Source: Bdellovibrionales bacterium
Lineage (GTDB): Bacteria > Bdellovibrionota > UBA1018 > CAIMNF01
Assembly: GCA_947372355.1 (NCBI GenBank)
Contig: CANBTI010000005.1
Span: forward strand, 103 to 64,102
DNA length: 64,000 nt
Direction: 5' to 3'
Part shown: positions 24,728 through 42,602 of the stretch, in pieces
Layout: each line of letters starts with the position of its first letter
Position numbering within the stretch: position 1 is the stretch's first letter
Translations under genes and position numbers: made by a program
The notes under the pieces: generated by a model
Seen by the model: the letters and a program-made list of their open reading frames with translations, nothing else
Told to the model about the DNA's origin: nothing
The model's database searches: none

Positions 24728-24752
24728 TGTTATAAAACAAGAGGTAATTTAA

Positions 24753-27000: not shown

Positions 27001-28413
27001 ATGAAGAATTTTAAGTTTATATTTTTAGGTATGTTAGCACTTTCAACTATGGGCCTTAGTTCAGCTCCCAAAAAGGGAACCGCCACCTTTGAATTAAGTG
27101 ACTGGCCAAAACAAATGAGCAAAATTCATTCGATGGAACTTGATTTAGCTGGTGTGAACCTAAATCAAAAGCAAGTGGATCTCATCATCAACAATGATCA
27201 AATTGAATCATTAAAAAAATTGGGATTTAAATTAATCAGCACCAATTTTAATTCAAATAAATCATCTCCAGATTCTGGCTATCAATCCCCAGTAAAAATC
27301 GAATCCAGCTTAAAACAATATGCAGCTAAATTTCCAAACTTAGCTCAACTCACTTCAATTGGAAAATCTCTCGAAGGAAGAGATATTTGGGCAATTCGTC
27401 TTACTAAAGACGTTGCAACCAATAACCCAGCAAAACCTCACATACTTTTCAATTCCATGCATCATGCGCGCGAAGTGATGACTGCTGAAGTTGGTTTAGA
27501 TATTGTTGATCAATTGCTCACCCAATACGGAAAAGACGCGAGCATCACTCAATGGATGGATTCATATGAAATTTGGGTGATTCCAATGTTTAACGTAGAT
27601 GGAAATAATTTAGTATGGACTCACGATAGCATGTGGAGAAAAAATGCTCGCGGTGGGTATGGTGTGGATATTAACCGCAATTATCCATATGCTTGGAATA
27701 GTTGCAATGGATCCGGAAGTTCACAAAGTGCTCAAGATTTCCATGGAGCAAGCGCTGCTTCAGAACCTGAAACAAAAGTAATGATGAACTTCGTTAATCA
27801 AGTTCGCCCGGTATTTGAAATTTCCTATCACTCCTACAGTGAATTAGTGATTTACCCTTATGGTTGCCCAAATCAGCACACACAAACAAAAGATGTGATT
27901 GAAAAAATCGGTAAAGAACTCGCTAGTAAACTCGTTTCCGATAACGGTAAAGGCACCTACACCGCCGGAACTGCACCAGAACTTCTCTATGCAGTAGATG
28001 GAGGCGATATTGATTGGCTCTATCACGAAGCACAAGTGATTCCATTTGTGATTGAAATCAATTCAAACGGTCAAGGCTTTCAACCTTCTTATTCAAAATG
28101 GCGAGATATTACAGTTCAACGCCAAAGAGAAGGATGGAAGTATTTATTGAATCGCATGAGTGGTTCGGCAATTCACGGCCAAGTGACAGATCAAAAAGGC
28201 ACTCCAATCACTAATGCAAAACTTCACATCACTGGGCCTACCAACCAAGATTATGCCGTAAACAATGAAGGATATTTTTTCGTAATTCTTAACCCAGGAA
28301 ATTATTCAATTACCGTTCAAGCACCTGGAACTGAAAATACCTCAAAAAATATTACCGTTGCTAACAAACCGATTGAATTGCCAATGAAGATGTTTACTGC
28401 CAAATCCCTGTAA
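27001..28413 (+). CDS. M14 zinc carboxypeptidase with C-terminal carboxypeptidase-regulatory-like (transthyretin-like) domain
   Basis: Signal peptide from ATG 27001 (MKNFKFIFLGMLALSTMGLSSA); zinc ligands HHAREVMTAE; C-terminal IHGQVTDQKGTPITNAKLHITG...NYSITVQAPG beta-sandwich. Confidence 0.8.
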   Translation: MKNFKFIFLGMLALSTMGLSSAPKKGTATFELSDWPKQMSKIHSMELDLAGVNLNQKQVDLIINNDQIESLKKLGFKLISTNFNSNKSSPDSGYQSPVKIESSLKQYAAKFPNLAQLTSIGKSLEGRDIWAIRLTKDVATNNPAKPHILFNSMHHAREVMTAEVGLDIVDQLLTQYGKDASITQWMDSYEIWVIPMFNVDGNNLVWTHDSMWRKNARGGYGVDINRNYPYAWNSCNGSGSSQSAQDFHGASAASEPETKVMMNFVNQVRPVFEISYHSYSELVIYPYGCPNQHTQTKDVIEKIGKELASKLVSDNGKGTYTAGTAPELLYAVDGGDIDWLYHEAQVIPFVIEINSNGQGFQPSYSKWRDITVQRQREGWKYLLNRMSGSAIHGQVTDQKGTPITNAKLHITGPTNQDYAVNNEGYFFVILNPGNYSITVQAPGTENTSKNITVANKPIELPMKMFTAKSL

Positions 28414-29230
28414 TCGGAGTAGCAGTTACATCACCGTTGCCAAGATTCCCGATACCAAAATGATCTTCAATCATTTTTAATATGGAATAATGATTATGAG
28501 GCAAGTTTACCACTGAGCCTGGTTTTACATTTGCACCATAGAATGCAGTAAATATTTGGTTTTTACTGAAAATATTTTCAGATTCATCAAAGGTAATGAT
28601 CAAAAGAGTATCCTTCATGAATTTTGAATCATTTAATATTCCACCAAAATTATCTGAAAACCATTGGGAAGCAAAAGCAGAACTGGTGTTGTGCCCATCA
28701 TTTTTTAAATTAGGAATATACATAGAAAATGCAGGCACAGAATTAGAAGCAATATCAATTTTCAATTGCGCAGAAGGAACTACCTTTAAACATTCATTCC
28801 TATTATTTTGAACATTAGTAAAACTAAGAAATGGAACATGCTTCCTCGCATAGAGACCACTATCAGAACCTAAAAAACACGGTTGAGGCAAGTCTTCTGC
28901 GTAAACTTTCCATGATAAGTTTTTCTTCGCTAGTAGACCACCAATATGTTCGGCATTGATACTTACTGAATCATCATTTCTCACACCTTGAGTACTACCA
29001 GAAATCATCGCTAAGTAATTAGGCTGAGAAGGATGAGCTTCTGCTGAGAACTGAGTAAAGAGAGCACCTTCATTTGCCAATTTCGCAAAAAAGGGCTGCT
29101 TTAATGCAACACTATAGTTTGCATTTTCAAAAACAACAATCATCACACGATTAAAAGAAGACTCAGCTGCCCAAACACTAGAAGAGTTAAAAAATGTAAG
29201 CATCAGGAAAACAAACAAAAACTTAATCAT
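28394..29230 (-). CDS. Secreted phosphoesterase-family protein (PLC/AcpA-like)
   Basis: Signal peptide; MIVVFENANYS resembles the V-V-x-E-N-R-S-F-D motif of the phosphoesterase family. It is shorter than typical members, hence moderate confidence. Confidence 0.5.
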   Translation of the reverse strand: MIKFLFVFLMLTFFNSSSVWAAESSFNRVMIVVFENANYSVALKQPFFAKLANEGALFTQFSAEAHPSQPNYLAMISGSTQGVRNDDSVSINAEHIGGLLAKKNLSWKVYAEDLPQPCFLGSDSGLYARKHVPFLSFTNVQNNRNECLKVVPSAQLKIDIASNSVPAFSMYIPNLKNDGHNTSSAFASQWFSDNFGGILNDSKFMKDTLLIITFDESENIFSKNQIFTAFYGANVKPGSVVNLPHNHYSILKMIEDHFGIGNLGNGDVTATPITGIWQ

Positions 29231-29287
29231 CTGATTGTATTATCACTGATCTAAGTTCTCGGTTATTTTTAATTTTATTCAATCATT

Positions 29288-30190
29288 TTAGATACTTGCT
29301 TCGGAATCTCGAATCTGTTTCACTTCATAAGCAAACTCACCCCAAACCCAAACGGGAACTATTCCACTTCTGAAAATATCTTTAGAAACACTCCCAAAAA
29401 CCGTACTCTCCCAAGGTCGAAGTGTAGAGGAGACTCCAACCAATTCAACTTTTCTTTTTTTACAAGCCTCTAGAATAGACTTACTCACCGTATTTGGTGA
29501 ATCGATCACCATGGTAGAGATTTTTATTTGTGAATTAATATCTTTATATTTTTTTGCCCACACAGATAATTCTTTTTCGTCTTCATCATTTTTTCTCAAA
29601 AAATTATTCGGGAACATGGCCGGGACGCCGATTGCACTATATACACCCAAGGCTTCCACCAACGATCGACCTGCATGAAAAATAATAATTTCATCAATAC
29701 TACCCTCACAAAAATTTATAAAGTTCTTAAAAGCAACTTCTGAGTTTTTTGAAAAATCAGTAGCAAAAATTGCTTTTTTTGAAAGGTCAAAGATAGATTC
29801 AGTTAGAAAAAGAATGGGTATTGGGGAAATATTCAGCAATTTCTCAGCAAAACTTCCCATGACTAAGCGATCAATCCCTTTTCTTCCATGAGAAGAGAGC
29901 GCTATTGCAGAAGCCTTATTCTCTAAGGCAAAGATTAAAATCTTTTTTATATAATCATCCCGATCATACGAATCACTGATCAAAACTTTTGGTTGATGAA
30001 AATTACAGATCCCTAAACTCACGAGATAAGAATATAATTTATTCTGCGTAATTTCTTGATCTGGAGAAGTAATCGAAACTGGATAAACACTTTTACTTTC
30101 TAAAAACTTCAAAGTGGAAAAAGATGGCTTTACTGTTTCATCATCAGGATCAACAGCCCAAATTACAATTGAATGCTTAGAGTGTATCAT
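29288..30190 (-). CDS. Tandem universal stress protein (UspA) domain protein
   Basis: ALSSHGRKGIDRLVMGSFAEKLL matches the Usp ATP-binding G-x2-G-x9-G(S/T) motif; two Usp-like halves. Confidence 0.6.
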   Translation of the reverse strand: MIHSKHSIVIWAVDPDDETVKPSFSTLKFLESKSVYPVSITSPDQEITQNKLYSYLVSLGICNFHQPKVLISDSYDRDDYIKKILIFALENKASAIALSSHGRKGIDRLVMGSFAEKLLNISPIPILFLTESIFDLSKKAIFATDFSKNSEVAFKNFINFCEGSIDEIIIFHAGRSLVEALGVYSAIGVPAMFPNNFLRKNDEDEKELSVWAKKYKDINSQIKISTMVIDSPNTVSKSILEACKKRKVELVGVSSTLRPWESTVFGSVSKDIFRSGIVPVWVWGEFAYEVKQIRDSEASI

Positions 30191-30222
30191 TAACCCTCCT
30201 GATCATTGAGAATGAATCCTAA

Positions 30223-31659
30223 TCAAGATTCATCAGTTGTTTCCAATTGATTTTCTTCACTTTCGTCTGCAGAAGACAATCCGTATTCTTGTTCTTTACG
30301 ATAAAGAGTTCGACGATTAATGCCAAGAATTTGAGAAGCTTTATCTTTTCTTCCGCCAGTTTTTTCAAGAATCAAACGAATATATCTTTCTTCTAATTGA
30401 TTAATTGAAGGAAAATCAATGGTAGATGTAGAAAAGAACTTATCAGCACTTTGTTCCTCAACAGATGGTAAATCCACCTCATCTACTAAATTTGAAGTGC
30501 ATAAAACTACAGCGCGTTCCACAACATTTTCTAGTTCACGAACATTACCATCCCAACGCATACTCATTAATTTTGAAATTACTCTTTTGGTAAAACCTTT
30601 AACATTAATATTATTTGCAGCAGCGTGCTTTCTAAGGAAATGCTCGGCTAGAAGAGGGATGTCATCCACTCTTTGTCTTAGTGGTGGAATGACAATTGGA
30701 ATTACACTCAGTCGATAAAATAAATCATCTCTGAAAAGACCCTCTTTCATTGCTGATTTTAAATCCTTATGTGTAGCAGAAATAATTCTAACATCGATAT
30801 CTCGAGCAATATTTTCACCTACCGCACGTACCTTTTTTTCTTGAATCACTCTTAATAGTTTAGCCTGAAGTGATACATCCATATCTCCAATTTCATCTAA
30901 AAATATAGTTCCGCCGTTTGCTTCCTCAAATAAGCCCCTTTTTCTTTGAGAAGCTCCAGTAAAAGAACCTTTCGCATGACCAAAGAGCTCAGATTCTAAG
31001 AGATTTTCAGGAATCGCGGTACAGTTGATTGCTACAAAAGGTTTGTTTGCTCTTGGTCCGCCGGCATGAATTGCTTGTGCAACCATTTCTTTTCCAGTAC
31101 CACTCTCACCCGTAACTAAAACATTGGATGTAACCTGTGAAACGCGATTCACTAAATCAAAAACAGATTTAATCGCTGCACTTTTTCCAATCATGCTTCC
31201 TAACGACCAATTACTTTTTAATTCTTGTCGAAGCGCTGTATTATCGCGTTGAAGCTGACGATACTCAATTGCTCTTTCAACATTGACGAGCATTTCAGTA
31301 AGTTTAAAAGGTTTTACAATGTAATGGAAAGCTCCTTTATTCATTGCTTCAACTGCAGTTTCAATTGATCCAAATGCAGTGATTAAAATTACTGGAATTT
31401 CTGGTCGAAGAAGTTTTAACTTTTCAGTTAACTCTAAACCGCTCATTTGTGGCATTTTAATATCTGAAATAATTAAATCAATATTGCCTTCAGTTTTATT
31501 TGAAGCATGAATCCCATCACTTGAAAAAGATTGTAGTGCATCATTTGCAGATGAAAAACAAATCACCTCATAACCGTCACCGGTTAGATAATCATCAAGT
31601 AGGGCTCTCATTTCTTTGTCATCATCAATCACTGCAATTTTAGCTTTAGAGATTTTCAT
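30223..31659 (-). CDS. Sigma-54-dependent response regulator (NtrC family: REC + AAA+ + HTH)
   Basis: REC (AVIDDDKEMR...ISDIKMPQMSG), Walker A GESGTGKE, sigma-54 contact loop ESELFGHAKGSFTGA, C-terminal Fis-type HTH. Confidence 0.85.
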   Translation of the reverse strand: MKISKAKIAVIDDDKEMRALLDDYLTGDGYEVICFSSANDALQSFSSDGIHASNKTEGNIDLIISDIKMPQMSGLELTEKLKLLRPEIPVILITAFGSIETAVEAMNKGAFHYIVKPFKLTEMLVNVERAIEYRQLQRDNTALRQELKSNWSLGSMIGKSAAIKSVFDLVNRVSQVTSNVLVTGESGTGKEMVAQAIHAGGPRANKPFVAINCTAIPENLLESELFGHAKGSFTGASQRKRGLFEEANGGTIFLDEIGDMDVSLQAKLLRVIQEKKVRAVGENIARDIDVRIISATHKDLKSAMKEGLFRDDLFYRLSVIPIVIPPLRQRVDDIPLLAEHFLRKHAAANNINVKGFTKRVISKLMSMRWDGNVRELENVVERAVVLCTSNLVDEVDLPSVEEQSADKFFSTSTIDFPSINQLEERYIRLILEKTGGRKDKASQILGINRRTLYRKEQEYGLSSADESEENQLETTDES

Positions 31660-31813
31660 ATTTTTTCCTTAGGGTATGTGTAATTCAAACCAGTCAAAAA
31701 CACAAAGGAATAGCAGGGGAAATTGATAATTATTTAGTTTAAGTATATTTAATTTTATGCTAATAATTTAGTAGAAAACGGCCAACAAGAATCAGACCAA
31801 CAGTTAAAAAAAT

Positions 31814-32950
31814 ATGACTAAATTAAAAAATTACAGCATCTTGGTGATTGGTAACCAAAATGATTTTCTCGAAATAAATGGGCACTTAAAAAAATTAAAA
31901 AATTTTGAGGTAGAGCTTTTAACTGAAATCACTTCAGACAAATTACATGCCAAAGTATTTGATCTTTACTTTCTGAAACTCTCTCCTCAATCAAAAGAAG
32001 AACTTAAAACCTTAATTGATTTAAATCTTCATACCCACACTACCCCCATCATCATTTACTCCAATAAATATGACCACCAAATGGCACTGAAGGTAGTAGG
32101 ATTGGGAGCATCTGATTATGTATCACTTGATCAAATCGATGAGTATTCTCTAGAAAAATCGATATTTTATACCATTCATCACTCCAATGAAATCAAAGCC
32201 CTGTTGGTGAATAAAATTGAAGCTGCAATTCAAGACAGACTCTCCACTACAGAAATTCTCGCTTCAAGTTTAGCTCATGAAATTGGAACTCCTTTAGGAA
32301 TCATTCGCGGTAGAGCCGAGTTTATGCAACTTCAAACAAAGGAAAGCTCATTCATTCAAAAAAATCTAGAAACTATTATTTCTCAAATTGATCGTGTTTC
32401 TCATCTTATTAACTCTCTTTTAAAGATTTCTAATGGTACCGATTCAGAATCTTCAAATGCCTATTTTGCACAAGATATGATTAAAGAAGTAATTGAATTG
32501 CTAGATTATGAATTTCGAAAGCTTAATATTAATTTCATTAATGATTTTGAAAACTCAGATCCCACCCCACTAGGATCAGAGGTGAAACATTTTCATAAAG
32601 TTTTAATGAATATTTTAATGAATTCTATTCAGGCTATTCAAAGTGCTAAAGAACAAGGAAGAACAGAACAGCATTCGATTAAAATCACCAAAGAAATTCA
32701 CAATGATTTTTTACGCATTACCGTAAGCGATACAGGTTGTGGGATCCATGAAGCAAAACTAAAAAATCTATTCACTCCCGTTTTTAAAACCATTGATTTT
32801 GATCAGAACCCTGGTTTTGGTTTAGCAATTACTCATCGGATCGTGGAATCTTGGGGTGGTAAAATTGAAGTTACCAGTAAGCCAGATTTAGGCACTCAAG
32901 TTTCCATTCAACTTCCAAATAAATTAAAAACTAAAAATATTAGTGAATAA
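31814..32950 (+). CDS. Cytoplasmic sensor histidine kinase with N-terminal pseudo-receiver-like domain
   Basis: H-box SSLAHEIGTPLGIIRG, HATPase_c (SDTGCGIH...GFGLAITHRIVESWGGKIEV); divergent from the NtrC-like regulator. Confidence 0.8.
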   Translation: MTKLKNYSILVIGNQNDFLEINGHLKKLKNFEVELLTEITSDKLHAKVFDLYFLKLSPQSKEELKTLIDLNLHTHTTPIIIYSNKYDHQMALKVVGLGASDYVSLDQIDEYSLEKSIFYTIHHSNEIKALLVNKIEAAIQDRLSTTEILASSLAHEIGTPLGIIRGRAEFMQLQTKESSFIQKNLETIISQIDRVSHLINSLLKISNGTDSESSNAYFAQDMIKEVIELLDYEFRKLNINFINDFENSDPTPLGSEVKHFHKVLMNILMNSIQAIQSAKEQGRTEQHSIKITKEIHNDFLRITVSDTGCGIHEAKLKNLFTPVFKTIDFDQNPGFGLAITHRIVESWGGKIEVTSKPDLGTQVSIQLPNKLKTKNISE

Positions 32951-33260
32951 CTTTTAAAGTATCTTTTGGAATAGCAACTAATAGCAAACCATCACGATAT
33001 TGAGTTGCAATATTTCTTCCATGTGAACGTACAATCACATCTTTAGGTGAAAAACCATTTCCATTATCTTTACTTCCATCTCCTTTGATCACCAATTGAT
33101 CATCGAGTAGTTCTATATCAATCACATTACCTGTAATAAACCTTCCATCAATACTTAGTACATAATGAGTATCTCCTTCCTCCACATCAAAGATTGGATA
33201 TAACGGATAAGCCAAAACAAGGGCCTGCTGAATTTTTGAATAGGGTTGTTGTAAAATCAT
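32940..33260 (-). CDS. Small heat-shock protein (Hsp20/alpha-crystallin-like)
   Basis: PIFDVEEGDTHYVLSIDGRF...LVIKGD...LLLVAIPK fits alpha-crystallin domain pattern. Confidence 0.5.
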   Translation of the reverse strand: MILQQPYSKIQQALVLAYPLYPIFDVEEGDTHYVLSIDGRFITGNVIDIELLDDQLVIKGDGSKDNGNGFSPKDVIVRSHGRNIATQYRDGLLLVAIPKDTLKVIH

Positions 33261-33289
33261 GTTTCCGTATCTCCTAGGGAATTAGTTAA

Positions 33290-33304
33290 GCAAGAAAGGG
33301 GCCA
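33290..33304 (-). promoter_or_regulatory. Sigma-54 -24/-12 promoter upstream of Hsp20-like gene
   Basis: Minus-strand TGGCCC-ctttc-TTGC (rc of GCAAgaaagGGGCCA); -12 element 30 nt upstream of ATG 33260; RBS aggagat. Confidence 0.5.
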
Positions 33305-33374
33305 GCAATGAGTCGTTCAATTGGTTTTGAGTGAAGGATTTATTGTAAAAATGTGTTTTTTGAGCAAATTTGTC

Positions 33375-33683
33375 TCATTTTTTTATTTTAACCTGGTGAG
33401 TATTCATAAAATTCTCATATTTATAGGCTATTTGATTCAGAGTTAATTTATCTTTACGTTCGATCGCAGAATCCATCTCTCGAGCCAGTTCTACAATGTA
33501 ATGGTAACCAAATGATCCTGGCGTACCTAGAAGTCGGTGGCTAAGTTTTTTTAATGAGTGATAATCTGAAAATTCAATTCCACTTCTTAATTTTTCTAAA
33601 TCTTTCCACCTCATTTCAATAAAAGTAGGTAGAACTGGTTCCAAAACTCGCTCTACATTCACCACCCAATTTTGATTTTCCAT
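33375..33683 (-). CDS. Hpt (histidine phosphotransfer) domain protein
   Basis: LKKLSHRLLGTPGSFGY matches Hpt H-x-[LI]-K-G-s-s-x-x-x-G. Confidence 0.5.
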   Translation of the reverse strand: MENQNWVVNVERVLEPVLPTFIEMRWKDLEKLRSGIEFSDYHSLKKLSHRLLGTPGSFGYHYIVELAREMDSAIERKDKLTLNQIAYKYENFMNTHQVKIKK

Positions 33684-33686
33684 AAG

Positions 33687-34109
33687 TTATCCCACTCTTT
33701 TTTCATGAGATTTTTTGGTAAATAAATTTTGTCTCATTGTGGTTGGAGCAGTTCTAAACTCACCAATCGTTTTAATAAAATCAGGAATCTTAAAAGGTTT
33801 TTGAATTACTCCAACTACTCCTTGGGGCAATTTCATTTGCTTTAATCTGGGTACAGCGGAGAAAAACATGATGGGTGTATTTTCTAATATTCTTTCAGTT
33901 TTAACTGCAGACAAGAACTCATCGGACTTCATATCCGGTAGAGTTAAATCCAATAATATTAAAATCACCTCTGGACGAGTTCTTAAGATAGCAATTCCTT
34001 CTCCCGCTGTTGCAGCAGAAATGATATGATATCCCTCTTGTTCCAATAGCAATCTTAAAAGATCCTGCATTTCTCCATTATCTTCAATCACCAAAATATC
34101 GTTATTCAT
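33687..34109 (-). CDS. Single-domain response regulator receiver
   Basis: ILVIEDNGE...ILLDLTLPDMKSDEF; Lys near C-term. Confidence 0.8.
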   Translation of the reverse strand: MNNDILVIEDNGEMQDLLRLLLEQEGYHIISAATAGEGIAILRTRPEVILILLDLTLPDMKSDEFLSAVKTERILENTPIMFFSAVPRLKQMKLPQGVVGVIQKPFKIPDFIKTIGEFRTAPTTMRQNLFTKKSHEKRVG

Positions 34110-34148
34110 ACGTAGTTCCCAATACTATTTACGTTAAATAAAAATTAA

Positions 34149-34649
34149 CTAAACTGCTCTTTGAAAATGAAACCTTAAAAGATCAACAATCTCAGAGATG
34201 GGTTTCGTTTTTTTCACATGAGCAAGATACTTAAAATGCTTTGTGTAAGGCGGCTTACACTTTGATTTTTCACAGCTGGATAGAATAATCACTGGAACTT
34301 TTTTATTTTCCCATTCCAGTGGTAAGTTTGGCTCGAATTTGAACCCCTTTTCAGCTGCCACTAAAGTTTCATGGCCATTGAGTTTTGGAAGATCCCACTC
34401 TAATACAATTAAGTCGTAGGCATGTTCGGTCATCAAATCCATCGCTTCGAATGGGTCTTGGGCAACGGAAACCTTCAAGTCTCTGTCAAATTGCAGAAGT
34501 AATTGAATTTGGTTTGCCATTGCTTGATCATCATCAATGATGAGTACTCTTTTATACTTTTTTGTCTTGCTCAGATTTCGCAATGGCAACAGTGGTAAGA
34601 AGAAAGAATCATATGTTGTTAAACTACCGGCTACGAAATTAGAAAGCAT
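34149..34649 (-). CDS. Atypical receiver domain protein with Glu at the phospho-acceptor position
   Basis: RVLIIDDD (acidic pair) ... YDLIVLEWDLPKLNG aligns residue-for-residue with PhoB DLILLDWMLPGGSG, which places E at D53; ILSS and KP (T/K equivalents) present. Confidence 0.65.
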   Translation of the reverse strand: MLSNFVAGSLTTYDSFFLPLLPLRNLSKTKKYKRVLIIDDDQAMANQIQLLLQFDRDLKVSVAQDPFEAMDLMTEHAYDLIVLEWDLPKLNGHETLVAAEKGFKFEPNLPLEWENKKVPVIILSSCEKSKCKPPYTKHFKYLAHVKKTKPISEIVDLLRFHFQRAV

Positions 34650-34686
34650 GCATCACCCCTTTAATGTTTGTTCTGCATTCATCAAA

Positions 34687-34701
34687 GCAAGCACAATGCC
34701 A
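34687..34701 (-). promoter_or_regulatory. Sigma-54 -24/-12 promoter upstream of REC-REC-Hpt operon
   Basis: Minus-strand TGGCAT-tgtgc-TTGC (rc of GCAAgcacaATGCCA), 38 nt upstream of ATG 34649; strong RBS aaagggg. Confidence 0.55.
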
Positions 34702-34794
34702 ATTCTAAATAGCTGAAAATACTTGGATTGAAATCTCATTTATTTAATTTTACTTGATTTGACTCAAAATAGAGACTTATTGCCCCTGATAAGC

Positions 34795-35958
34795 CTATTG
34801 ATCACTTTCAAGTACTTTATACGATCGTCCCTCAAGTGAGGCACAAATTGACTCATAGATAAGTTTTTTGCAGGTTGAACAAAACAACTGTTTATTTTCA
34901 TCAAGACCCTTTAGGTTTACCATTTCAATCATTGATTTTTTTTCACAGCTTTTACAAATCACCTCAAAAGAACTACCGCTCACTGCAATGTCATTAAAAG
35001 GATGTTTATTCTTTAATAATCGAGCCTTTTTAAAAGCAGAATAGATTTGAAGATCAGCGATGTTAGCCCCGTTTGAGAATACCGTTACAGGGCCATCTTC
35101 TGAGATGGTGAATACGATTACATCTTCATGATCGTAAGAATATCTAACAGATGAAGTGTGTCGCGTGCCTTTGCACGCAGGAACAATTTTACGGCTTTTT
35201 TCAGAGTATTTAAGGTGTTCACCAGTACTCATTAATAATCCCTTAGAATCCAAAAATGTTGCACCATCCACCTGTGAGAGCAAATGACAAAACAACCGTG
35301 AATGAGAATCATTCATGATCGATAGTTGAAGAGATGCCAAATCTGAAGAAACTTTGTTAATTTTACCCAACTGCCAAACAATGACTCCCCCAGCTCTCAT
35401 GGTTGGGCTCATTAAATGGAACGAAAATTCCAAAATACTACTCAAAATAATCTTATCAATATTGGTAACGCATTTTGAAACTTTCCATGCGGCTTCTTTA
35501 ATATTAGGCTTACTAAACCAACGACGATTTTCGTGAATGATAATTCCATTATTTTGATAAAATTTTGCTAATCCACTGGATTCTTTTTGAATGATTAATC
35601 CAGCAGTAAGTGGGAAATTTCTAATCATTTGAAGTTCGTTGTTTATGGAGTGATTAAAACGGGCTAAGCCAAAAAAACTATCCTTTTCATACAATACAAA
35701 CCACTCCTTACCATCAGCCATCTTTCTAGCTATTTCTAATTGCTCATTTTGGAGTGAAATCACTTCGATATTTTCCAACTCAGAAATATTCTCAGCAAAT
35801 ATAATCCCACTGGAAAACATCTTGCCCTCATGCACCTCTGGTATAATTGCTCTTATACATTCTTGCGTAATGCTTTTTGACAATAACCAATCAAATTGAT
35901 TAGATCGCACACCATTTAATTCTAACTCTTGTGCGATCAGACTTTGCATTACCGACAT
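34795..35958 (-). CDS. DAC (diadenylate-cyclase-like, DisA_N/CdaA-type) domain protein with N-terminal unknown domain and C-terminal CxxC-x23-CxxC zinc ribbon
   Basis: MRAGGVIVWQ (GALI-like), SQVDGATFLD (DGA motif), ACKGTRHTSSVRYSYDHEDVIVFTISEDGPVTVFSNGANI aligns with CdaA [37 protein letters not shown] but with RHR->RHT; CKSCEKK...CSTCKK. Confidence 0.6.
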   Translation of the reverse strand: MSVMQSLIAQELELNGVRSNQFDWLLSKSITQECIRAIIPEVHEGKMFSSGIIFAENISELENIEVISLQNEQLEIARKMADGKEWFVLYEKDSFFGLARFNHSINNELQMIRNFPLTAGLIIQKESSGLAKFYQNNGIIIHENRRWFSKPNIKEAAWKVSKCVTNIDKIILSSILEFSFHLMSPTMRAGGVIVWQLGKINKVSSDLASLQLSIMNDSHSRLFCHLLSQVDGATFLDSKGLLMSTGEHLKYSEKSRKIVPACKGTRHTSSVRYSYDHEDVIVFTISEDGPVTVFSNGANIADLQIYSAFKKARLLKNKHPFNDIAVSGSSFEVICKSCEKKSMIEMVNLKGLDENKQLFCSTCKKLIYESICASLEGRSYKVLESDQ

Positions 35959-36063
35959 AAACGTATTGAATGCATAAAATCGGCCATCATAGTATTTAAT
36001 AAAATGTCGGCATACTTATTGATAATAACAATTGTGTCATTCAATGGACTTGGGGGAAGTAGA

Positions 36064-36504
36064 ATGGAATCTACAAAGAAGCGGAAGTCCGTATACGTTA
36101 TCGAAGATGATATTGAAATGTCTACGATCATTGATCGTGTTTTAAAGAGCATTGATCCAAGTATTATCTTAGATTGGTCTACGAGTGCGGAAGAGGCGAT
36201 ACTAAAAATCCAATCAGCTCTAAAGAAAGGCGTTAAAAAACCATATGATTTGATCATTACCGATGTTCTTTTGGATGGTTCACGCAGCGGAATAGACTTT
36301 TGGCAATTCTGCCAAAATGAATTCAGCAAAATACCCATTGTGGTTACCTCCGCTTGCAGTAAAGATTCACTATTTAAGACAAGTACGCCCCTTCCGAAGT
36401 CTTTAATATTTCTGCAAAAACCTTTTTCAATTTCAGAAAGTAAAAAGCTTTTTAAAAAACTTCTACTCGAAAAATCAAATACAACACAAAGCCAAAACTT
36501 ATAG
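36064..36504 (+). CDS. Single-domain response regulator receiver
   Basis: SVYVIEDDIEM...YDLIITDVLLDGSRSGIDF...LQKPF; probable start ATG 36064 (the track's 35929 start overlaps the upstream convergent gene). Confidence 0.7.
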   Translation: MESTKKRKSVYVIEDDIEMSTIIDRVLKSIDPSIILDWSTSAEEAILKIQSALKKGVKKPYDLIITDVLLDGSRSGIDFWQFCQNEFSKIPIVVTSACSKDSLFKTSTPLPKSLIFLQKPFSISESKKLFKKLLLEKSNTTQSQNL

Positions 36505-36507
36505 GGT

Positions 36508-36522
36508 TGGTACACAACTTGC
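36508..36522 (+). promoter_or_regulatory. Sigma-54 -24/-12 promoter upstream of REC-HK pair
   Basis: TGGTAC-acaac-TTGC with exact spacing; -12 element 40 nt upstream of ATG 36561; RBS tggggg. Confidence 0.5.
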
Positions 36523-36560
36523 TTTTAATATCTTTTACTTATTATTAATGGGGGCTTGCT

Positions 36561-36935
36561 ATGAGTAATCAGGGCATTTTAATCATTGAGGATGAAGATT
36601 GAATCAGAGAAGGACTAAGTCTTTCCTTGGAACTAGAAGGCTATACTACCTACACTGCTTCAAATGGTCAGGAGGGATTAGACATTTTGTCTCAGATCTC
36701 ATCTCCGAGTCTCATTCTTTTGGATTTAATGATGCCCGTGATGAATGGGTGGGAATTTGTTGAATCCATTAAAAAAATCAAAAAACTATCCAAAATTCCT
36801 ATTGTAATCATATCTGCATTTTACGATCAATCGAATAATATTCCTGTCCAGGGTCATTTGAAAAAACCAATTGCACTAGCCAATTTATATAAGACCATAA
36901 AAGATTTGGAAGTAACAAATGAGCAAAATGCTTAA
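36561..36935 (+). pseudogene. Receiver-domain gene interrupted by in-frame TGA at codon 14 (36600-36602)
   Basis: atg agt aat cag ggc att tta atc att gag gat gaa gat TGA atc aga gaa... = MSNQGILIIEDED*IREGLSLSLELEGY..., same frame as ORF 36627..36935; close paralog of intact REC at 39988..40356 (IIDDDETVRNTL). Confidence 0.6.
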
Positions 36936-37685
36936 TAATGACGAATATAAACAAACACTGACATTAGAAAAACATGCAAGGCAAGAAGCAGAAAAATCAC
37001 TCAGGCAGCGTGATGAATTTATTTCAATCGCCGCTCATGAGCTCAATACGCCACTCGCAGCCCTGACATTACAATTACATCTTCTTAAAAACTTGTCATT
37101 GAAGGTAATCATAAAAAAAATAATCATAAAATTGTTTCAAATTTATTAAAAAACTCAAATCTTCAAGTTGAAAGGCTAACAGGACTAGTAGAAAACCTTT
37201 TAGATACTACAAGAGCCAGCAATGGAAAATTATCCATTGAAAAAACTAAAACCGATTTATGTAAAACTGTACGCAGAGTAATTAAATTACATAAATTGGA
37301 TATTATAAAAAACAAATCTACTTATAGTCTTAATTTAGTGAAATCAGCAATTGGGCTTTGGGATCCCATCAGAATTGAGCAAGCAATTTCAAACTTGGTA
37401 AGTAATGCAATTAAATATGGAGCAGGAAAACATATTATTATTTCGGTTGGCATTGATAGCTTAAATGCTAAAATAACAGTGGAAGATCATGGAATTGGAA
37501 TGAGTAGCGAAATACTTTCCAAAATATTCAATAGATTTGAAAGAGCTGCTACCATTAAAACTTATGCAGGATTAGGTCTCGGGTTATTTATTACTAAAGA
37601 AATCATCAATGAGCATGGAGGAAAGATAGTTGCTGAAAGCAAACTTGAAGAAGGATCAATTTTTACGATAGAACTTCCTATTTAA
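36919..37685 (+). pseudogene. Sensor-less histidine kinase interrupted by a -1 frameshift in an A8 tract (37113-37120)
   Basis: Frame 1 encodes H-box FISIAAHELNTPLAALTLQLHLLKN and stops at 37149. From 37089, frame 0 continues KIVSNLLKNSNLQVERLTGLVENLLDTTRA...HATPase_c (GLGLGLFITKEIINEHGGKIV) to 37685. The switch site is the run aaaaaaaa. Confidence 0.65.
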
Positions 37686-38786
37686 ATTTAGAAAACTTAA
37701 AATTTTAAATAAGTAATTATGACTCTCCTTTTTTTGATTCTGAAGCCTTTGATTTAGTAGCGCATTATCTAAAGCAAAACTAATCCTATTACAAACATCT
37801 TCGGCTAGTCGTAAATCTTCCCAGGTGAATCTTCGTTCTATGTTAGAAGACATAAAGGTAATCACTCCATAGGAATGATCTCTAATGGTTAATGGAACGA
37901 GCATCATTGAATAAATTTTTAGTTTTTCCAATACTTCATTAAACGAAGAGTTTAAAAAAACTTCTCTTAGAATTAATTCAGAAGTCTCACTATACAACTC
38001 TGACTTTCCATCATGGATCACTTTGGGTATCCCTGTTGCTCCTAGAGAACTGATCCCTTGCTTTTGCCGACAATCCTTACCTATTATCGATAACGATTGA
38101 TCTGGATAATAAAAATCTAAGCATTCAATTTGTCCATTTTCATCCAATATATCAATCGAATAGGATTCAGTAATTTTTGGAACGATCATTCTACGGATCG
38201 CCCTTAGAGTGTCTTCCTGCATTACACAATGAGCCAATGTTCCATTGATGAGATTTAAGTAAACCGATTTTGAAGAAAGATCATGCAATAGTTTTTCAGT
38301 TTTAATTCGTTCGGTAATATCCCTAAAACTCCATGTTCTTCCTATTGCATTTCCATTCCTCATTTGCCCTTTAGAAAAACGCTCATAAATTCTGCCATCC
38401 TTAAATTCAATTAGATCTAAACTTTCACTGATATGATCGTTATACAGTGCTCTCACTTTACTGAGAAACATTTCCGGATCTTTAACTTGATCAATTACAA
38501 AAACAAGAAGCTGATCGTCATCTAAGGCTGCGGCAACTGATTCTGGTATTTTCCATAATTCTATAAACTTTTTATTAAATGAAGTAATTTTACCCTGGAT
38601 ATCTACAATTAAAACACCATCAATGATCGATTCAATTGTTTCTTTGATGATTGAATTGCAATTTAAATATTCACTTGATTTAACGCCACTCAACATTGAT
38701 CGAATTTCTCCCATTTCTTTTCTCAACGATTCGATCTTAGTAAAATTCGTTTCCTGTTTTTCCATTATCATTGACTTAGAATGCAA
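37656..38786 (-). CDS. PAS-GAF sensor protein without output domain
   Basis: N-terminal PAS (IIDGVLIVDIQGKITSFNKKFIELW...RDITERIKTE) followed by GAF-like region; 3' end overlaps convergent HK by 30 nt. Confidence 0.6.
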   Translation of the reverse strand: MHSKSMIMEKQETNFTKIESLRKEMGEIRSMLSGVKSSEYLNCNSIIKETIESIIDGVLIVDIQGKITSFNKKFIELWKIPESVAAALDDDQLLVFVIDQVKDPEMFLSKVRALYNDHISESLDLIEFKDGRIYERFSKGQMRNGNAIGRTWSFRDITERIKTEKLLHDLSSKSVYLNLINGTLAHCVMQEDTLRAIRRMIVPKITESYSIDILDENGQIECLDFYYPDQSLSIIGKDCRQKQGISSLGATGIPKVIHDGKSELYSETSELILREVFLNSSFNEVLEKLKIYSMMLVPLTIRDHSYGVITFMSSNIERRFTWEDLRLAEDVCNRISFALDNALLNQRLQNQKKESHNYLFKILSFLNLNRKFYRKN

Positions 38787-38812
38787 TTTTTATGCTCTCG
38801 AACGAATATAAA

Positions 38813-38827
38813 CGGCATCAACATTGC
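38813..38827 (+). promoter_or_regulatory. Sigma-54 -24/-12 promoter upstream of patatin-like gene
   Basis: CGGCAT-caaca-TTGC exact spacing; -12 element 26 nt upstream of TTG start 38853. Confidence 0.55.
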
Positions 38828-38852
38828 TAACTTTCATTGCAGGAAGTGAAAA

Positions 38853-39991
38853 TTGAACAAAAACCTAGGATTAGTATTAATGAGCGGAGGGGCACGAGGC
38901 GCCTACCAAGCTGGCGCGTTGCGAGCGATTGCTGAAATATCAAAAACTGAAACCTTACCCTTCCCCTACTTAACTGGAATATCTGCAGGAAGCTTGAATT
39001 GTGGATTTTTAGGTTGCTATGCAGATAACTTTAATCAAGCGGTCAGCAAACTAACAGACCTTTGGTATAACATTACACCAAGTGATATCTTCACCACTGA
39101 TCCATTAAAACTTGTTAAAAATGGACTTGGATGGATTAAAGATTTTAGCATTGGTGGCGTGGTAGGAGGCGTGAAAGGACGTTCATTACTAGACACCGCT
39201 CCTTTAAGAGAACTCTTAATTAAAAATTTAGACATGACCAAATTGGTTGATCACATATCCACAGGAAAAATTAAGGGTTTTGCAGCTTCGGCAACTAACT
39301 ATTACACAGGAACTTCAGTAGTTTTTTTTGACGGAATGCCTTCTATTGAACCTTGGATTCGTAATACAAAGATGGGAATACGCACTACCATCACCATCGA
39401 GCACCTCATGGCATCATCTGCAATTCCATTTTTTTTCCTGCAGTTAAAGTGGGTAATGCATTTTACGGAGATGGGTGCATTCGAATGCATTCTCCACTGA
39501 GTCCGGCCATCAATATGGGTGCAGAAAAAATTATCGCGATTGGAGTACGACACGAGCGATTAGTAAAAAAATCCAGCGATTTAGAAACTCCTTATTTTAT
39601 ACATTATCCCTTATTTGCAGAATTGGGCGGAATGATCTTTAATGCCATATTTTTGGATTCTCTAGAAGATGACATTGAACTTTCACATTCAAAAAATGTT
39701 ATCTTTTTACTTACTTCAAAAAAAAAACAATCCGACACTCGAATAAAACATATTCCCACTATGCTTCTCAGACCATCAATCGATCTTGAAAATTTAGTAA
39801 GGAAATCAGCAAAAAAGTTTCCTATGACTATTCAACATTTTTTAAAAGGCATGGGAGCATCTAGTGAAACTGGCTGGAATTTGATGAGTTATCTTGCCTT
39901 TGATTCAACTTATACCAGTCGATTAGTGGAACTTGGATATGAAGATACAATTTTAGCCAAGAGCAAATTAACCGATTTTATGGAAATTTAA
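38853..39991 (+). pseudogene. Patatin-like phospholipase split by a frameshift in a T8 tract (39429-39436)
   Basis: ORF1 has the oxyanion hole GGARGAYQAG and GISAGS (GxSxG nucleophile); ORF2 (frame -1) has AVKVGNAFYGDGCIR (catalytic DG) and the rest of the fold. Restoring T9 gives AIPFFFPAVKVGNAFYGDG in one frame. Confidence 0.7.
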
Positions 39992-40356
39992 CAATTCAGT
40001 TTTTTTAAAGTTTCCAACAATCGTTTTAGATCGATTGGTTTTTTTAAAAAAGCATTTACTTTAATTTTTTTTGCTTGTTCACTAAATGCACTGATCACCA
40101 CTACTGGGATTTTAGAAATTAATCGATCATTTTCACGAAAATCCAAGAACTCCCATCCATCCATAATTGGCATCATGAGATCCAATAAAATCAAACAAGG
40201 TCTCGGAATTTTTTCCAAAACTTCAATCCCCTCTTGACCATTAGATGCTGCAAAAACCGTATAATGTTCTTTTTCAAGAACCTCAATTAATGTATTTCGA
40301 ACGGTTTCATCATCATCAATAATTAGGATAACTTGATTCTTCATATCTATTTTCAT
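39988..40356 (-). CDS. Single-domain response regulator receiver (CheY-like)
   Basis: ILIIDDDETVR...LILLDLMMPIMDGWEF...LKKPI. Confidence 0.8.
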   Translation of the reverse strand: MKIDMKNQVILIIDDDETVRNTLIEVLEKEHYTVFAASNGQEGIEVLEKIPRPCLILLDLMMPIMDGWEFLDFRENDRLISKIPVVVISAFSEQAKKIKVNAFLKKPIDLKRLLETLKKLNC

Positions 40357-41581
40357 GGCTGAAACTTGACTTCATCCAAACTAAAGATTCATTTACCAAA
40401 TGATCGATATTCCCCACCATTAACTTTGCATTTGATTCCGGCATTAAATCTATAGCGATTCGATTTGAAAAAATGAGTTCACTATGATCAGACTCTATTA
40501 TAAATAAAGTTGGGCACTTAATTTTTTGAAGTGGAATCAGTAAATCAGGTTTTCCATTCAGTGAAACCATGCCCTGTGTAAGAGGTTCAAATAAAGAAAC
40601 ACAATGTAAAATTGCCGCAACACCAGAGCCTGATCCAAAGAATGCTATTGGCAATTGATCAAAAACAACATTATTTTTCAACCATTGCGTGATCATAGAT
40701 AATCTTTGCGAAATAACATCAACATGATAATAATTCGAATTGGAATTAATTTCATCTTCAGTAAAGAGATCAAAAACCAAAGTTCCATAACCATTTTCAT
40801 TCAAACTTTTGGCAATTTTAAGATTTTTAATGTTTTTTCTGCAACTGCCCTTACCATGTACAAAAATAACCCAACCAGATATTTTTTTAGGCTTCACCAA
40901 TTCCCCAACAATTTTTTTACCAAACACTTCAATACTAACTTCGTTGAATGAAAAGTTTTTTAATTCTCTTTTAATCAGATCAACTTCTAAGGTTGGATAT
41001 TCTTCATACCACTCACCAACCGAGCCAAAAATTGAAGGTGTATGAGCAGAGAATAGATAATCTGCTTCTGATTTTACCAATTGGTATCCAGTAGGTGAAG
41101 CCACTGGTACTACCACAGTGATCTCTTTGGCCCCCTGAATTCTAAGCGAACGGAGCGCCACTAACATCGAAGCTCCTGATGAAATTCCATCATCTACTAA
41201 AATAACGGATCTATCCCTCACATCCATTGGATTCAATTTTAATTGAAAGATTCGTTCTATATTTTGAACTTCCATCATCGATCGTGCAATTGTTTTATCC
41301 AATTGAAATTGGTTAATATTTAAAAAATTAATTAATTCATTATTTAACCAAATCTGATAGCTATCACCTACAGCACCAATTTCATAATTTGGATTAAGTG
41401 GGGTTCCTATTTTACTGACTGCAATCATCTCTAATGAAGCTCTTAATTTTTTCGCAATCGCCTTTGCCACTGGAACGCCAGTCAACGATAAAGCCACAAC
41501 AACTGCATTTTTATACTTCCATTCGTTATAAATTGCATTTGCTAATACGATTCCTGCTTGTTCTCTATTTTTGAAATACAC
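40316..41581 (-). CDS. Fusion protein: N-terminal type-I phosphoribosyltransferase-like domain (COG1926-type) + C-terminal alpha/beta hydrolase (dienelactone-hydrolase-like)
   Basis: PRPP loop VILVDDGISSGASML; hydrolase GWVIFVHGKGS, nucleophile elbow FFGSGSGVAA, His in NIDHL; GTG start at 41581. Confidence 0.6.
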   Translation of the reverse strand: MYFKNREQAGIVLANAIYNEWKYKNAVVVALSLTGVPVAKAIAKKLRASLEMIAVSKIGTPLNPNYEIGAVGDSYQIWLNNELINFLNINQFQLDKTIARSMMEVQNIERIFQLKLNPMDVRDRSVILVDDGISSGASMLVALRSLRIQGAKEITVVVPVASPTGYQLVKSEADYLFSAHTPSIFGSVGEWYEEYPTLEVDLIKRELKNFSFNEVSIEVFGKKIVGELVKPKKISGWVIFVHGKGSCRKNIKNLKIAKSLNENGYGTLVFDLFTEDEINSNSNYYHVDVISQRLSMITQWLKNNVVFDQLPIAFFGSGSGVAAILHCVSLFEPLTQGMVSLNGKPDLLIPLQKIKCPTLFIIESDHSELIFSNRIAIDLMPESNAKLMVGNIDHLVNESLVWMKSSFSHENRYEESSYPNY

Positions 41582-41599
41582 GGTTTAATCCCCTAAGCA

Positions 41600-41866
41600 T
41601 TATTTTAAGATAATTTTTTTATCGTGATATGCAAAAACTGGTGGTGGCCTTTTGGGTGGGTATTTTGAATGGGTGTTTTGAATATGATTTGAATTTTCAA
41701 CAACCTGATTGGGCGGATTAAGCACTTGTTGTAATTGTATAATACTAAGGCTCACTAAAGTGATGCAATACACTTTCGACATTAATTTTCTCATCAGCGA
41801 TGAAAAATGTTTGAATTTATAACTTTCAGCAGAAGTTGAATAATACATAAGTTGAGCCCATCCCAA
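41600..41866 (-). CDS. Small membrane protein (first gene of sigma-54-driven operon)
   Basis: TTG at 41866 or ATG at 41848 (MYYSTSAE...); hydrophobic VYCITLVSLSIIQL; perfect-spacing sigma-54 promoter immediately upstream supports expression. Confidence 0.4.
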   Translation of the reverse strand: MGWAQLMYYSTSAESYKFKHFSSLMRKLMSKVYCITLVSLSIIQLQQVLNPPNQVVENSNHIQNTHSKYPPKRPPPVFAYHDKKIILK

Positions 41867-41876
41867 ATATTTATTA

Positions 41877-41891
41877 GCAACCTATATGCCA
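41877..41891 (-). promoter_or_regulatory. Sigma-54 -24/-12 promoter upstream of small-protein/PRTase-hydrolase/REC operon
   Basis: Minus-strand TGGCAT-atagg-TTGC (rc of GCAAcctatATGCCA). Confidence 0.55.
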
Positions 41892-42053: not shown

Positions 42054-42602
42054 TTAACGGCCATTATTGTTGTCACATGGTGTTGGAGTTGGAGTTACGG
42101 TAGATCTTGTAATATGTGCTTTAACTACACAATAGATCACTGCTCCAACAATCACCACTCCGATTACTCGCATTGCCCAACGGTAACTACCTTGACCCCC
42201 ACTATAATTAGCTCCGTGTTGGTAACTACCAGCCATGAAATTCATCGCTAGATTACCAGCTTGCTCAGCAGAAACTTGACTTGTATCAATGGAAGTTAAT
42301 AAACGATCAAAATCCGCTCTTGCAGCTTCATCTAGAGTTGTGGTGCGCATGAAATCCATGATTTCAGTTGGTGCAATACCTTGCGCTTGTAAATTTTCTA
42401 ATTTTTGTTTGAAATCTGTAATAGCAACAGTTTGAAAGTTTGGATCATTAGGATCAACTTCAACTGTCATTTTATATCGAAATTCATTAAATGTTTTAGC
42501 AATCATTTTTGAATGTAAATCAATGTTATCATTTCCTACTGCAGCGAATGCCGAGTTAGAAACCATAGCTAAAACTGTGAACAGACTGAATACTTTTTTC
42601 AT
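42054..42602 (-). CDS. Secreted/membrane-anchored protein, paralog A (signal peptide, conserved ~130-aa domain, C-terminal TM)
   Basis: MKKVFSLFTVLAMVSNSAFA; shares TFNEFRYKMTVEVDPND...RADFD.LL.S...VS.E.AGNLAM.FMA..YQ.GA.YSGG and the TM (VIGVVIVGAVIYCVV) with 42788..43777. Confidence 0.6.
   Translation of the reverse strand: MKKVFSLFTVLAMVSNSAFAAVGNDNIDLHSKMIAKTFNEFRYKMTVEVDPNDPNFQTVAITDFKQKLENLQAQGIAPTEIMDFMRTTTLDEAARADFDRLLTSIDTSQVSAEQAGNLAMNFMAGSYQHGANYSGGQGSYRWAMRVIGVVIVGAVIYCVVKAHITRSTVTPTPTPCDNNNGR

Follow-up and report, generated by a model that had tools for sequence, protein, structure and literature searches.

The DNA considered here is a window of 64 kb (the whole stretch analysed, 64,000 nucleotides) of contig CANBTI010000005.1 from a Bdellovibrionales bacterium, a relative of predatory bacteria that belongs to the Bacteriovoracaceae/Bdellovibrionota and is represented by metagenomes only, and the subject is a cluster of signalling genes at positions 29288-41581, a range of 12.3 kb that is called the island in the following. 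Genes for receivers (REC domains), histidine kinases and a histidine phosphotransfer protein (Hpt) are found there together with a diadenylate cyclase and an NtrC-type sigma-54 activator. The cluster is real and conserved, with corrections to the preliminary description that had pointed it out: the observation is partly confirmed, and its interpretation as a multistep phosphorelay is partly supported. The conserved core is formed not by the kinases but by a divergently transcribed receiver, a cyclase of the DACNK-DAC type, the Hpt protein and a further receiver, often joined by the activator. Domains were assigned by Pfam scans of the listed open reading frames (ORFs), with the Pfam gathering scores as cut-offs, and the signalling genes are the following (L007 is a related locus):

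30223-31659, minus strand: NtrC-type sigma-54 activator, REC-Sigma54_activat-HTH_8 (Pfam, motif check, CheY alignment)
31814-32950, plus strand: HK1, cytoplasmic kinase with pseudo-receiver, HisKA and HATPase_c (Pfam; orthologue in L007)
33375-33683, minus strand: Hpt histidine phosphotransfer protein (Pfam Hpt, 26.4 bits, cut-off 24.6)
33687-34109, minus strand: REC140, canonical stand-alone receiver (Pfam, CheY alignment)
34149-34649, minus strand: REC166, atypical receiver with a conserved insertion (Pfam, CheY alignment, orthologue comparison)
34795-35958, minus strand: diadenylate cyclase with DACNK, DAC and a C-terminal four-Cys zinc ribbon (Pfam DAC, 38.9 bits, cut-off 27)
36064-36504, plus strand: REC146, divergent stand-alone receiver, transcribed away from the cyclase (Pfam, 31.8 bits, just over the cut-off)
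36561-36935, plus strand: receiver interrupted by an in-frame TGA (53% identity with REC122; no counterpart in L007)
36919-37685, plus strand: HK2, HisKA-HATPase kinase, frameshifted (Pfam pieces 36919-37149 and 37296-37685)
37656-38786, minus strand: PAS-GAF protein without output domain (Pfam; 44% identical stand-alone orthologue in L007)
39988-40356, minus strand: REC122, canonical stand-alone receiver, overlapping the end of the PRTase gene (Pfam)

The dense clustering of receivers that had been claimed is borne out by a REC hidden Markov model (HMM), with which eight REC-bearing ORFs were found in the 64 kb and seven of these within the 12.3-kb range; this HMM was built partly from the island's own receivers, and it also detects the independent REC at 47299. 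The stand-alone receivers number five and not six, as had been counted, and the one at 36561 carries the in-frame TGA. In an alignment with CheY, the activator REC, REC140, REC146, the receiver at 36561 and REC122 are complete in acidic pair, acceptor Asp, Thr/Ser and Lys. The acceptor site of REC166 is a Glu in the window (LEWDLP) and in L007 (IEWNLP, gene at 4752-5252), and an Asp (LDWNLP) in five more distant orthologues; the Glu occurs only in the two loci that have an extra canonical receiver between REC166 and Hpt.

The Hpt assignment holds, as the score lies above the cut-off and the phospho-accepting His, which is part of an HxxxG motif, is invariant in an alignment of 10 orthologues. 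HK1 has clear HisKA (43.7 bits) and HATPase_c (72.7 bits) domains with the H-box SLAHEIGTPL, and as its REC-like N-terminal part scores below threshold (20.3 bits) and lacks the DD, D57 and K109 positions in the CheY alignment, this part is a pseudo-receiver, just as had been described. HK2 indeed consists of HisKA and HATPase domains, as expected for the sensor-less kinase that had been proposed, but it is not a single intact ORF, being frameshifted at an A8 run; it is closest to the kinases that adjoin the cyclase in the loci L003, L009 and L013. The idea that HK2 and the receiver at 36561 are a broken fusion, like the REC-kinase of L009, was set aside, the receiver being a paralogue of REC122. 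The PAS-GAF protein was confirmed by Pfam as lacking an output domain, and it was also considered as a truncated kinase and rejected as such, with a stand-alone orthologue in L007 and a hybrid kinase of L013 matched only by the GAF end. The domain search thus recovered Hpt, REC, HisKA, HATPase_c, PAS and GAF, but the N-terminal REC of the kinase and an Hsp20 domain stayed below threshold. For a multistep relay, all parts are there with their key residues (kinase H-box, receivers with acceptor Asp, the Hpt His, and a terminal REC-AAA+-HTH regulator, HTH being helix-turn-helix) and synteny is kept in a relative, but one receiver and one kinase are disrupted.

The cyclase and the conserved core

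The diadenylate cyclase had been seen as a DAC-like protein to which sensing is delegated, and in this respect the picture has changed, as it is not a peripheral sensor but the most conserved member of the module. Throughout its family, the DGA and GTRH motifs are invariant, as are four Cys in the C-terminal ribbon, and where characterised enzymes have RHR, this family has RHT, with another invariant Arg five residues later. Cyclases of solved structure are only marginally similar to it in sequence (best PDB E-value 0.014). The AlphaFold2 model of the cyclase (pLDDT 87.8, pTM 0.82) is matched by Foldseek to CdaA/DacA with a probability of 1.0 and a target-normalised TM-score of about 0.5. The DACNK domain modelled alone (residues 1-166, pLDDT 91.5) gives weak Foldseek matches, the top ones being DAC domains (probability up to 0.97, TM-score at most 0.42), and going by these models the protein may be a tandem of pseudo-cyclase and cyclase. 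An hhalign comparison of DACNK with DAC profiles gave a probability of 0.14% and no support for a relationship, and because this profile comparison was negative, an ancient duplication of DACNK and DAC is possible but unproven. A literature search for DACNK returned only one unrelated paper. A scan with Rfam found no c-di-AMP riboswitch, no Qrr-like RNA nor any other Rfam family in the window.

The conservation was followed in 16 distinct Bdellovibrionota loci and in about 69 cyanobacterial, actinobacterial/acidimicrobial and other DACNK-DAC loci. Relatives were found by an alignment-based contig scan; a contig scan with the single cyclase protein gave no matches. The cyclase homologues are 40-63% identical, one of them being annotated as that of a Bacteriovorax metagenome-assembled genome (MAG), and matches among species representatives are from Bdellovibrionales, Bacteriovorax and Bacteriovoracaceae MAGs. 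A REC146-type receiver divergently adjoins the cyclase in 14 of the 16 Bdellovibrionota loci, in 10 of the 16 an Hpt gene is found downstream of the cyclase at a distance of no more than about 1.3 kb (in L003 it is 5.6 kb away), and an NtrC-type activator lies at most 4 kb from the cyclase in 8 of the 16. Among the approximately 69 cyanobacterial, acidimicrobial and other DACNK-DAC loci, a REC146-type neighbourhood was found in none. The REC146-type family is small, comprising 29 proteins (E <= 1e-5), several of which are encoded on contigs that match the contigs of cyclase homologues in size. In L011, L015 and L021, there is an overlap of 4 nt between the cyclase gene and the Hpt gene, and in several Bacteriovorax-type loci a receiver gene follows directly. 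The module is itself conserved and lies in different genomic neighbourhoods in different genera.

The most extensive agreement is with L007 and L008, which come from two different samples and in which, at 63% cyclase identity, eleven genes are syntenic with the window in the order REC122, patatin (intact), PAS, REC146, cyclase, REC166, REC140, Hpt, a 106-aa gene, HK1 and activator. The genes are thus clustered and not scattered in relatives, which is what the comparison of genomes suggested in the preliminary description was meant to decide. The broken receiver-kinase pair is absent from L007 and L008. Stress-type genes found near the module in relatives encode universal stress proteins (USPs), Hsp20, P-type ATPases, a phosphoesterase, mechanosensitive channels and a Na/H exchanger with TrkA_C.

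Three further observations concern single loci. L007 has, at 4350-4583, a 64-aa ORF between the cyclase and REC166 genes that has no counterpart in the window; it has its own sigma-54 promoter and shares a TGAGAC site with the divergent REC166 promoter. The L018 contig (CALPVV020000001.1), labelled as a MAG of Nitrosovibrio sp. Nv4, carries the same module, agreeing in gene sizes and phmmer scores with L010, a locus of the Bdellovibrionota type, and it is probably mis-binned. The L002 contig differs from window positions 25890-36294 by 18 mismatches and one gap in 10.4 kb (99.82% identity), and other contigs of that MAG are 100% identical, which suggests strain-level variation in the sampled population.

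The activator, sigma-54 promoters and neighbouring genes

The activator encoded at 30223-31659 has a Sigma54_activat domain (238 bits) with the loop GSFTGA, a one-residue variant of GAFTGA, and the Walker A motif GESGTGK. Promoters were called from the sequence only, as matches to the generic -24/-12 consensus. The pattern TGGYAY-N5-TTGCT has six exact matches in the window, where 0.18 are expected and where no shuffled sequence gave more than one. Five of the six are located between 34.6 and 43.9 kb, and in all five cases the site is intergenic, lies on the coding strand and has a gene a short distance downstream; these island matches end 37-79 nt before the starts, in one case 295 nt. With one mismatch allowed, there are 14 matches in the window (3.9 expected), and three of them precede the Hsp20-like, patatin and CBS genes by 25-29 nt. 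For sigma-70-like sites there is no such excess, with 50 in the window and 61.7 expected. The sites that bear on the island are these:

24713-24728, plus strand: sigma-54-like promoter with one mismatch, TGGCTCAATAGTTGCT, 25 nt before the CBS gene
33289-33304, minus strand: sigma-54-like promoter with one mismatch, TGGCCCCTTTCTTGCT, 29 nt before the 106-aa gene, conserved in L007
34686-34701, minus strand: sigma-54 promoter, TGGCATTGTGCTTGCT, before the REC166-REC140-Hpt operon
36508-36523, plus strand: sigma-54 promoter, TGGTACACAACTTGCT, before the disrupted receiver-kinase pair
38813-38828, plus strand: sigma-54-like promoter with one mismatch, CGGCATCAACATTGCT, 25 nt before the patatin gene
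41876-41891, minus strand: sigma-54 promoter, TGGCATATAGGTTGCT, 295 nt before the PRTase start (PRTase-REC122 operon)
42645-42660, minus strand: sigma-54 promoter, TGGCATAGTGATTGCT, before the gene of a 182-aa signal-peptide protein
43856-43871, minus strand: sigma-54 promoter, TGGCATATTCATTGCT, before the gene of its 329-aa paralogue

As these matches lie directly upstream of island operons, the island looks like the regulon of its own activator. In the intergenic alignments with L007, which are otherwise divergent, the -24/-12 block is the best-conserved segment. A sigma-54 promoter is found ahead of the REC166-type gene in all seven loci that have this gene, whereas the loci without the activator have neither REC166 nor such promoters. 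The element TGAGAC occurs 51-73 nt upstream of five island promoters (54-73 nt for the longer form TGAGAC(A/T)AA), and TGAGAC sites are also found upstream of some promoters in L007, L003, L012 and L019 (single cases in the last three), one site in L007 being placed between two divergent sigma-54 promoters. Counted over the whole window, TGAGAC/GTCTCA is found eight times (3.8 expected), which is not significant alone, and TGAGAC is regarded as a candidate site for the activator. The sixth exact match, TGGCACCGCAATTGCT at 55272-55287 on the minus strand, lies 12 nt before the gene of a 494-aa protein (53776-55260) with a pAdhesive_15 (ice-binding-like adhesive) domain.

The genes that may be controlled in this way, and their neighbours, are listed here:

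24753-25244, plus strand: CBS-pair protein, possible regulon member (Pfam CBS, 83.7 bits)
28394-29230, minus strand: phosphoesterase-family protein (homologue adjoins the receiver-cyclase pair in L003)
29288-30190, minus strand: tandem USP (Pfam Usp in two stretches; homologue near the module in L012 and L013)
32940-33260, minus strand: 106-aa protein, weakly alpha-crystallin/Hsp20-like (Pfam HSP20, 19.4 bits, below 20.8; orthologues in L007 and L012)
38853-39991, plus strand: patatin-like phospholipase, frameshifted (Pfam patatin, 63.9 bits)
40316-41581, minus strand: PRTase domain and a C-terminal half with HG and GxSxG motifs (this half without Pfam match)
42054-42602, minus strand: 182-aa signal-peptide/transmembrane (TM) protein with no assigned function (ORF list, paralogue comparison)
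42788-43777, minus strand: 329-aa paralogue of the 182-aa protein with a Thr-rich TxTxT tail (ORF list, paralogue comparison)
47299-48480, minus strand: second REC-AAA+ protein, 393 aa (Sigma54_activat, 133.7 bits; GAMPMSFFSKPG replaces GAFTGA; no HTH_8)
48456-50429, minus strand: histidine kinase, 657 aa, gene overlapping the REC-AAA+ gene by 25 nt

As for the putative effectors named earlier, the domains of the USP, the patatin and the PRTase were found again, but Hsp20 is below the cut-off (the L012 homologue of the 106-aa protein also has only a faint HSP20 match) and for the hydrolase half of the PRTase protein Pfam gives no match. That these genes belong to the system agrees with the promoters, since a sigma-54 promoter match precedes each of the Hsp20-like, patatin and PRTase genes, and the USP gene, which follows 32 nt downstream of the activator gene, is probably in the activator operon for this reason. 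The 182-aa and 329-aa paralogues each have their own sigma-54 promoter, TGAGAC site and terminator; no homologues of them were seen near the module in relatives. Two NtrC-type regulators and three kinases had been counted, and one and two of these, respectively, are in the range. The numbers had become too high because an ordinary two-component pair 6 kb outside the range, consisting of the second REC-AAA+ protein and the third kinase (48456-50429), had been included. As the protein encoded at 47299-48480 has no GAFTGA loop and no HTH domain, it is probably not a sigma-54 activator.

Between the PRTase GTG start and its sigma-54 promoter lies a 295-nt stretch (41582-41875, minus strand) with an 88-aa ORF (41600-41866) that has no Pfam match and might encode a short protein or a leader, or else be a remnant. 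At the low-GC boundary, a secreted transglutaminase-elicitor protein (115 bits) is encoded at 23629-24693 on the minus strand; this family is better known from oomycetes.

Disrupted genes, the proposed relay and other explanations

Three genes of the island are disrupted. In the receiver gene at 36561-36935, codon 14 is an in-frame TGA (36600-36602). In HK2, the frame switches between 37089 and 37149, probably by a -1 frameshift in the A8 run at 37113-37120, and adding one A to this run restores a continuous HisKA-HATPase protein of 255 aa. The patatin gene changes frame at a T8 run (39429-39436), giving the pieces 38853-39500 and 39449-39991, and T9 would be expected there, because the intact 393-aa orthologue of L007 reads FFFPA(I/V)K across that point. 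The catalytic Asp of the patatin (YGDGC) lies beyond the shift and is thereby split from the GGARG and GISAG motifs, so that the patatin is not contained in one frame. All three lesions are found also in the NCBI MAG GCA_947377415.1 and in the Logan assembly of ERR10482440, both of which are 100% identical to the window over the lesion parts and may go back to the same reads. Other runs of 8-10 identical nucleotides, more than 15 in number, occur within long ORFs that are intact. As the lesions recur in the assemblies and so many homopolymers are in intact ORFs, the lesions are treated as real and not as generic assembly errors. There is, judged from the assembled sequence, good evidence for a partial decay that concerns three genes, and the duplicated receiver-kinase pair and the patatin are predicted to be inactivated in this genome.

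The explanation that we prefer, and consider rather probable, is that signalling genes and regulon form, in the island, a unit specific to a lineage of Bacteriovoracaceae type, in which a relay similar to LuxU/LuxO is wired to a diadenylate cyclase and drives a stress-type regulon by sigma-54. The kinase HK1, and formerly maybe also HK2, would autophosphorylate, and the phosphoryl group would then pass to a stand-alone receiver (REC140), to Hpt and to the receiver of the activator. The activator would open the sigma-54 promoter of the REC166-REC140-Hpt operon, which would close a feedback loop, and it would also drive the genes of the Hsp20-like protein, the patatin, PRTase-REC122, the two secreted paralogues and the CBS protein, with the USP probably being co-transcribed with the activator. 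The cyclase and its dedicated receiver REC146 would form a second branch of the relay, and the direction could be either, as phosphorylation may set c-di-AMP synthesis or the N-terminal domain of the cyclase may feed the relay. A more specific proposal, which we hold to be somewhat less likely than not, is that the cyclase with DACNK, DAC and zinc ribbon, as an uncharacterised class, belongs integrally to a His-Asp phosphorelay of the Bacteriovoracaceae and takes the operon form of a divergent receiver next to a translationally coupled cyclase-Hpt-receiver unit.

Several points weigh against this explanation. With RHT in place of RHR, the cyclase may be inactive or make another product. Six Bacteriovorax-type loci hold the receiver-cyclase-Hpt-receiver core with no kinase, activator or sigma-54 promoter nearby, and because the core stands alone there, a link between cyclase branch and activator branch is not obligatory. 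The activator is tied to the promoters by gene neighbourhood only, and these could be served by other sigma-54 activators of the genome. As a motif, TGAGAC was obtained post hoc from the very sequences on which it is scored, and it is not conserved in distant relatives. With three island genes broken, part of the circuit is non-functional in this strain. As several wirings are possible, the sequence HK1, REC140, Hpt, activator amounts to a guess, and the order of transfer, the service of these promoters by the activator, the activity of the cyclase and its regulation through the relay are all points that we infer.

Another explanation, unlikely but with some weight, is that several independent circuits (receiver and cyclase, receiver and PRTase, kinase and activator) are merely co-located, in a kind of genome that is rich in orphan two-component genes, and share sigma-54 control. 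Such independence would agree with the specific pairing of REC146 with the cyclase, with REC122 being in one operon with the PRTase, with the Bacteriovorax-type cyclase-Hpt-receiver core that stands without activator, and with the varying gene content around the core among relatives. However, eight loci show the core again with just one Hpt and one activator, the sigma-54 promoter of REC166 co-occurs with the activator in seven of seven loci, eleven genes are syntenic at 63% identity, and seven of the eight REC genes of the window are within 12.3 kb, all of which argues for one connected unit.

The lesions also allow the view that the island is a decaying accessory element of foreign origin that is largely non-functional in this strain, and this we regard as improbable. 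The GC content is 0.344 in the range and 0.39-0.41 in the flanks, a nonsense mutation and two frameshifts are seen in three assemblies, and the disrupted receiver-kinase pair is absent from L007, all as would be expected of such an element. Yet fourteen further genes carry no lesion and keep conserved key residues and promoters, the module is spread vertically across the phylum, its GC content in relatives being that of the respective genome, the difference in GC at third codon positions is small, and scans for ORFs and tRNAs in the window revealed no integrase, tRNA or repeat borders. The evidence for a recent horizontal origin of the island is thus weak.

A role in defence has very little probability. 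It would make the island an anti-phage system of the type of CBASS (signalling against phages by cyclic oligonucleotides) or DS-2, in which the signal of the DAC-family cyclase activates the nearby patatin. In a 2026 preprint, DAC proteins with the uncharacterised N-terminal domains DACNG and DACNH are reported as signal synthases in phage defence (bioRxiv 10.64898/2026.08.10.743927), and the patatin gene is 2.9 kb from the cyclase gene and also close to it in L007. Only in the window and L007, however, is a patatin near the cyclase, the conserved neighbours being the receiver and Hpt; the patatin gene has its own sigma-54 promoter and is frameshifted, and relatives offer no defence-island context. 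Neither cyclase nor patatin is matched by PADLOC, and no PADLOC model match and no conserved cyclase-effector operon of the CBASS, DS-2 or Panoptoo type was found.

Equally far-fetched is the notion that the A8 and T8 frameshifts in HK2 and the patatin are reversible phase-variation switches: both are single-base losses in 8-nt runs where one added base restores the full-length protein, and homopolymer phase variation of a sigma-54 two-component pair is known from Campylobacter FlgS/FlgR, but many 8-10-nt runs lie in intact genes, the same off state is found in all three assemblies, and the plain nonsense codon of the adjacent receiver fits decay.

Comparison with known systems

No protein of the island reached the cut-off of an NCBIfam equivalog. 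The preferred explanation, a relay connected to the cyclase and to a sigma-54 regulon, is compared here with known systems part by part. The cyclase shares the DAC fold and the DGA and GTRH motifs with CdaA/DacA, DisA, CdaS and CdaM; unlike these characterised enzymes, to which its sequence similarity is marginal, it has RHT and not RHR, and DACNK and a four-Cys zinc ribbon take the place of TM helices, helix-hairpin-helix (HhH) elements or the CdaS helices. Known regulators of c-di-AMP synthesis are partners of the CdaR, GlmM and RadA type. A conserved receiver-cyclase-Hpt-receiver operon would link this synthesis to phosphorelays, and in the literature searched we could find no receiver- or Hpt-linked diadenylate cyclase and no such link, which is why the cyclase and its dedicated receiver, embedded in the same module, are the part without a described counterpart there. 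If the proposal is true, it would be the first case of a two-component phosphotransfer that directly sets the synthesis of c-di-AMP (or a related nucleotide), or of a cyclase that serves as relay input, and it would assign a first context to DACNK, a domain known only from Pfam. Many members would in addition couple the cyclase to a sigma-54 stress regulon with products of USP- and CBS-type folds, and such folds are known elsewhere as c-di-AMP receptors.

The kinase HK1 resembles Leptospira LvrA/LvrB in its REC-HisKA-HATPase layout and in size, and it is matched by the LvrB model over residues 74-368 with 88 bits, but this is far below the model cut-off of 500 and its pseudo-receiver has no acceptor Asp. 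A similar assortment of stress genes under one two-component regulator (USP, small Hsp20-like protein, CBS protein, PRTase fusion) is found in the mycobacterial DosR regulon, which comprises USPs, the alpha-crystallin HspX, the CBS protein Hrp1 and the PRTase-type Rv0571c; DosR, however, is a LuxR-type regulator working with sigma-70, whereas the island regulator is a sigma-54 activator. With its promoters, candidate upstream site and feedback loop, the island would stand as a compact sigma-54 regulon of the Bacteriovoracaceae, which are little studied and mostly uncultured.

With respect to the relay as a whole, the Bacillus system KinA-E, Spo0F, Spo0B and Spo0A is similar in having four steps, a single-domain receiver in the intermediate position, soluble kinases that are poor in sensor domains, and a number of inputs; it differs in that the island uses a true Hpt of the four-helix type and not Spo0B, ends on a sigma-54 activator and has no sporulation context. 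The closest working analogue, by architecture, is the Vibrio relay, in which LuxN, LuxQ and CqsS act via LuxU on LuxO: a stand-alone Hpt feeds a REC-AAA+-HTH sigma-54 activator, several kinases or receivers converge on one Hpt, and the output is at -24/-12 promoters. Differences are that the activator is not an orthologue of LuxO (NCBIfam LuxO 363.8 bits, cut-off 800), that the first receiver is separate and not fused to a kinase (a hybrid kinase does exist in the relative L012), that the targets are protein-coding operons, with no Qrr-like RNA found by Rfam in the window, and that a diadenylate cyclase is embedded in the module. Even if the coupling of the cyclase is nothing but neighbourhood, the island would still be a clean natural example of a LuxU/LuxO-like relay that is built from separate single-domain parts.

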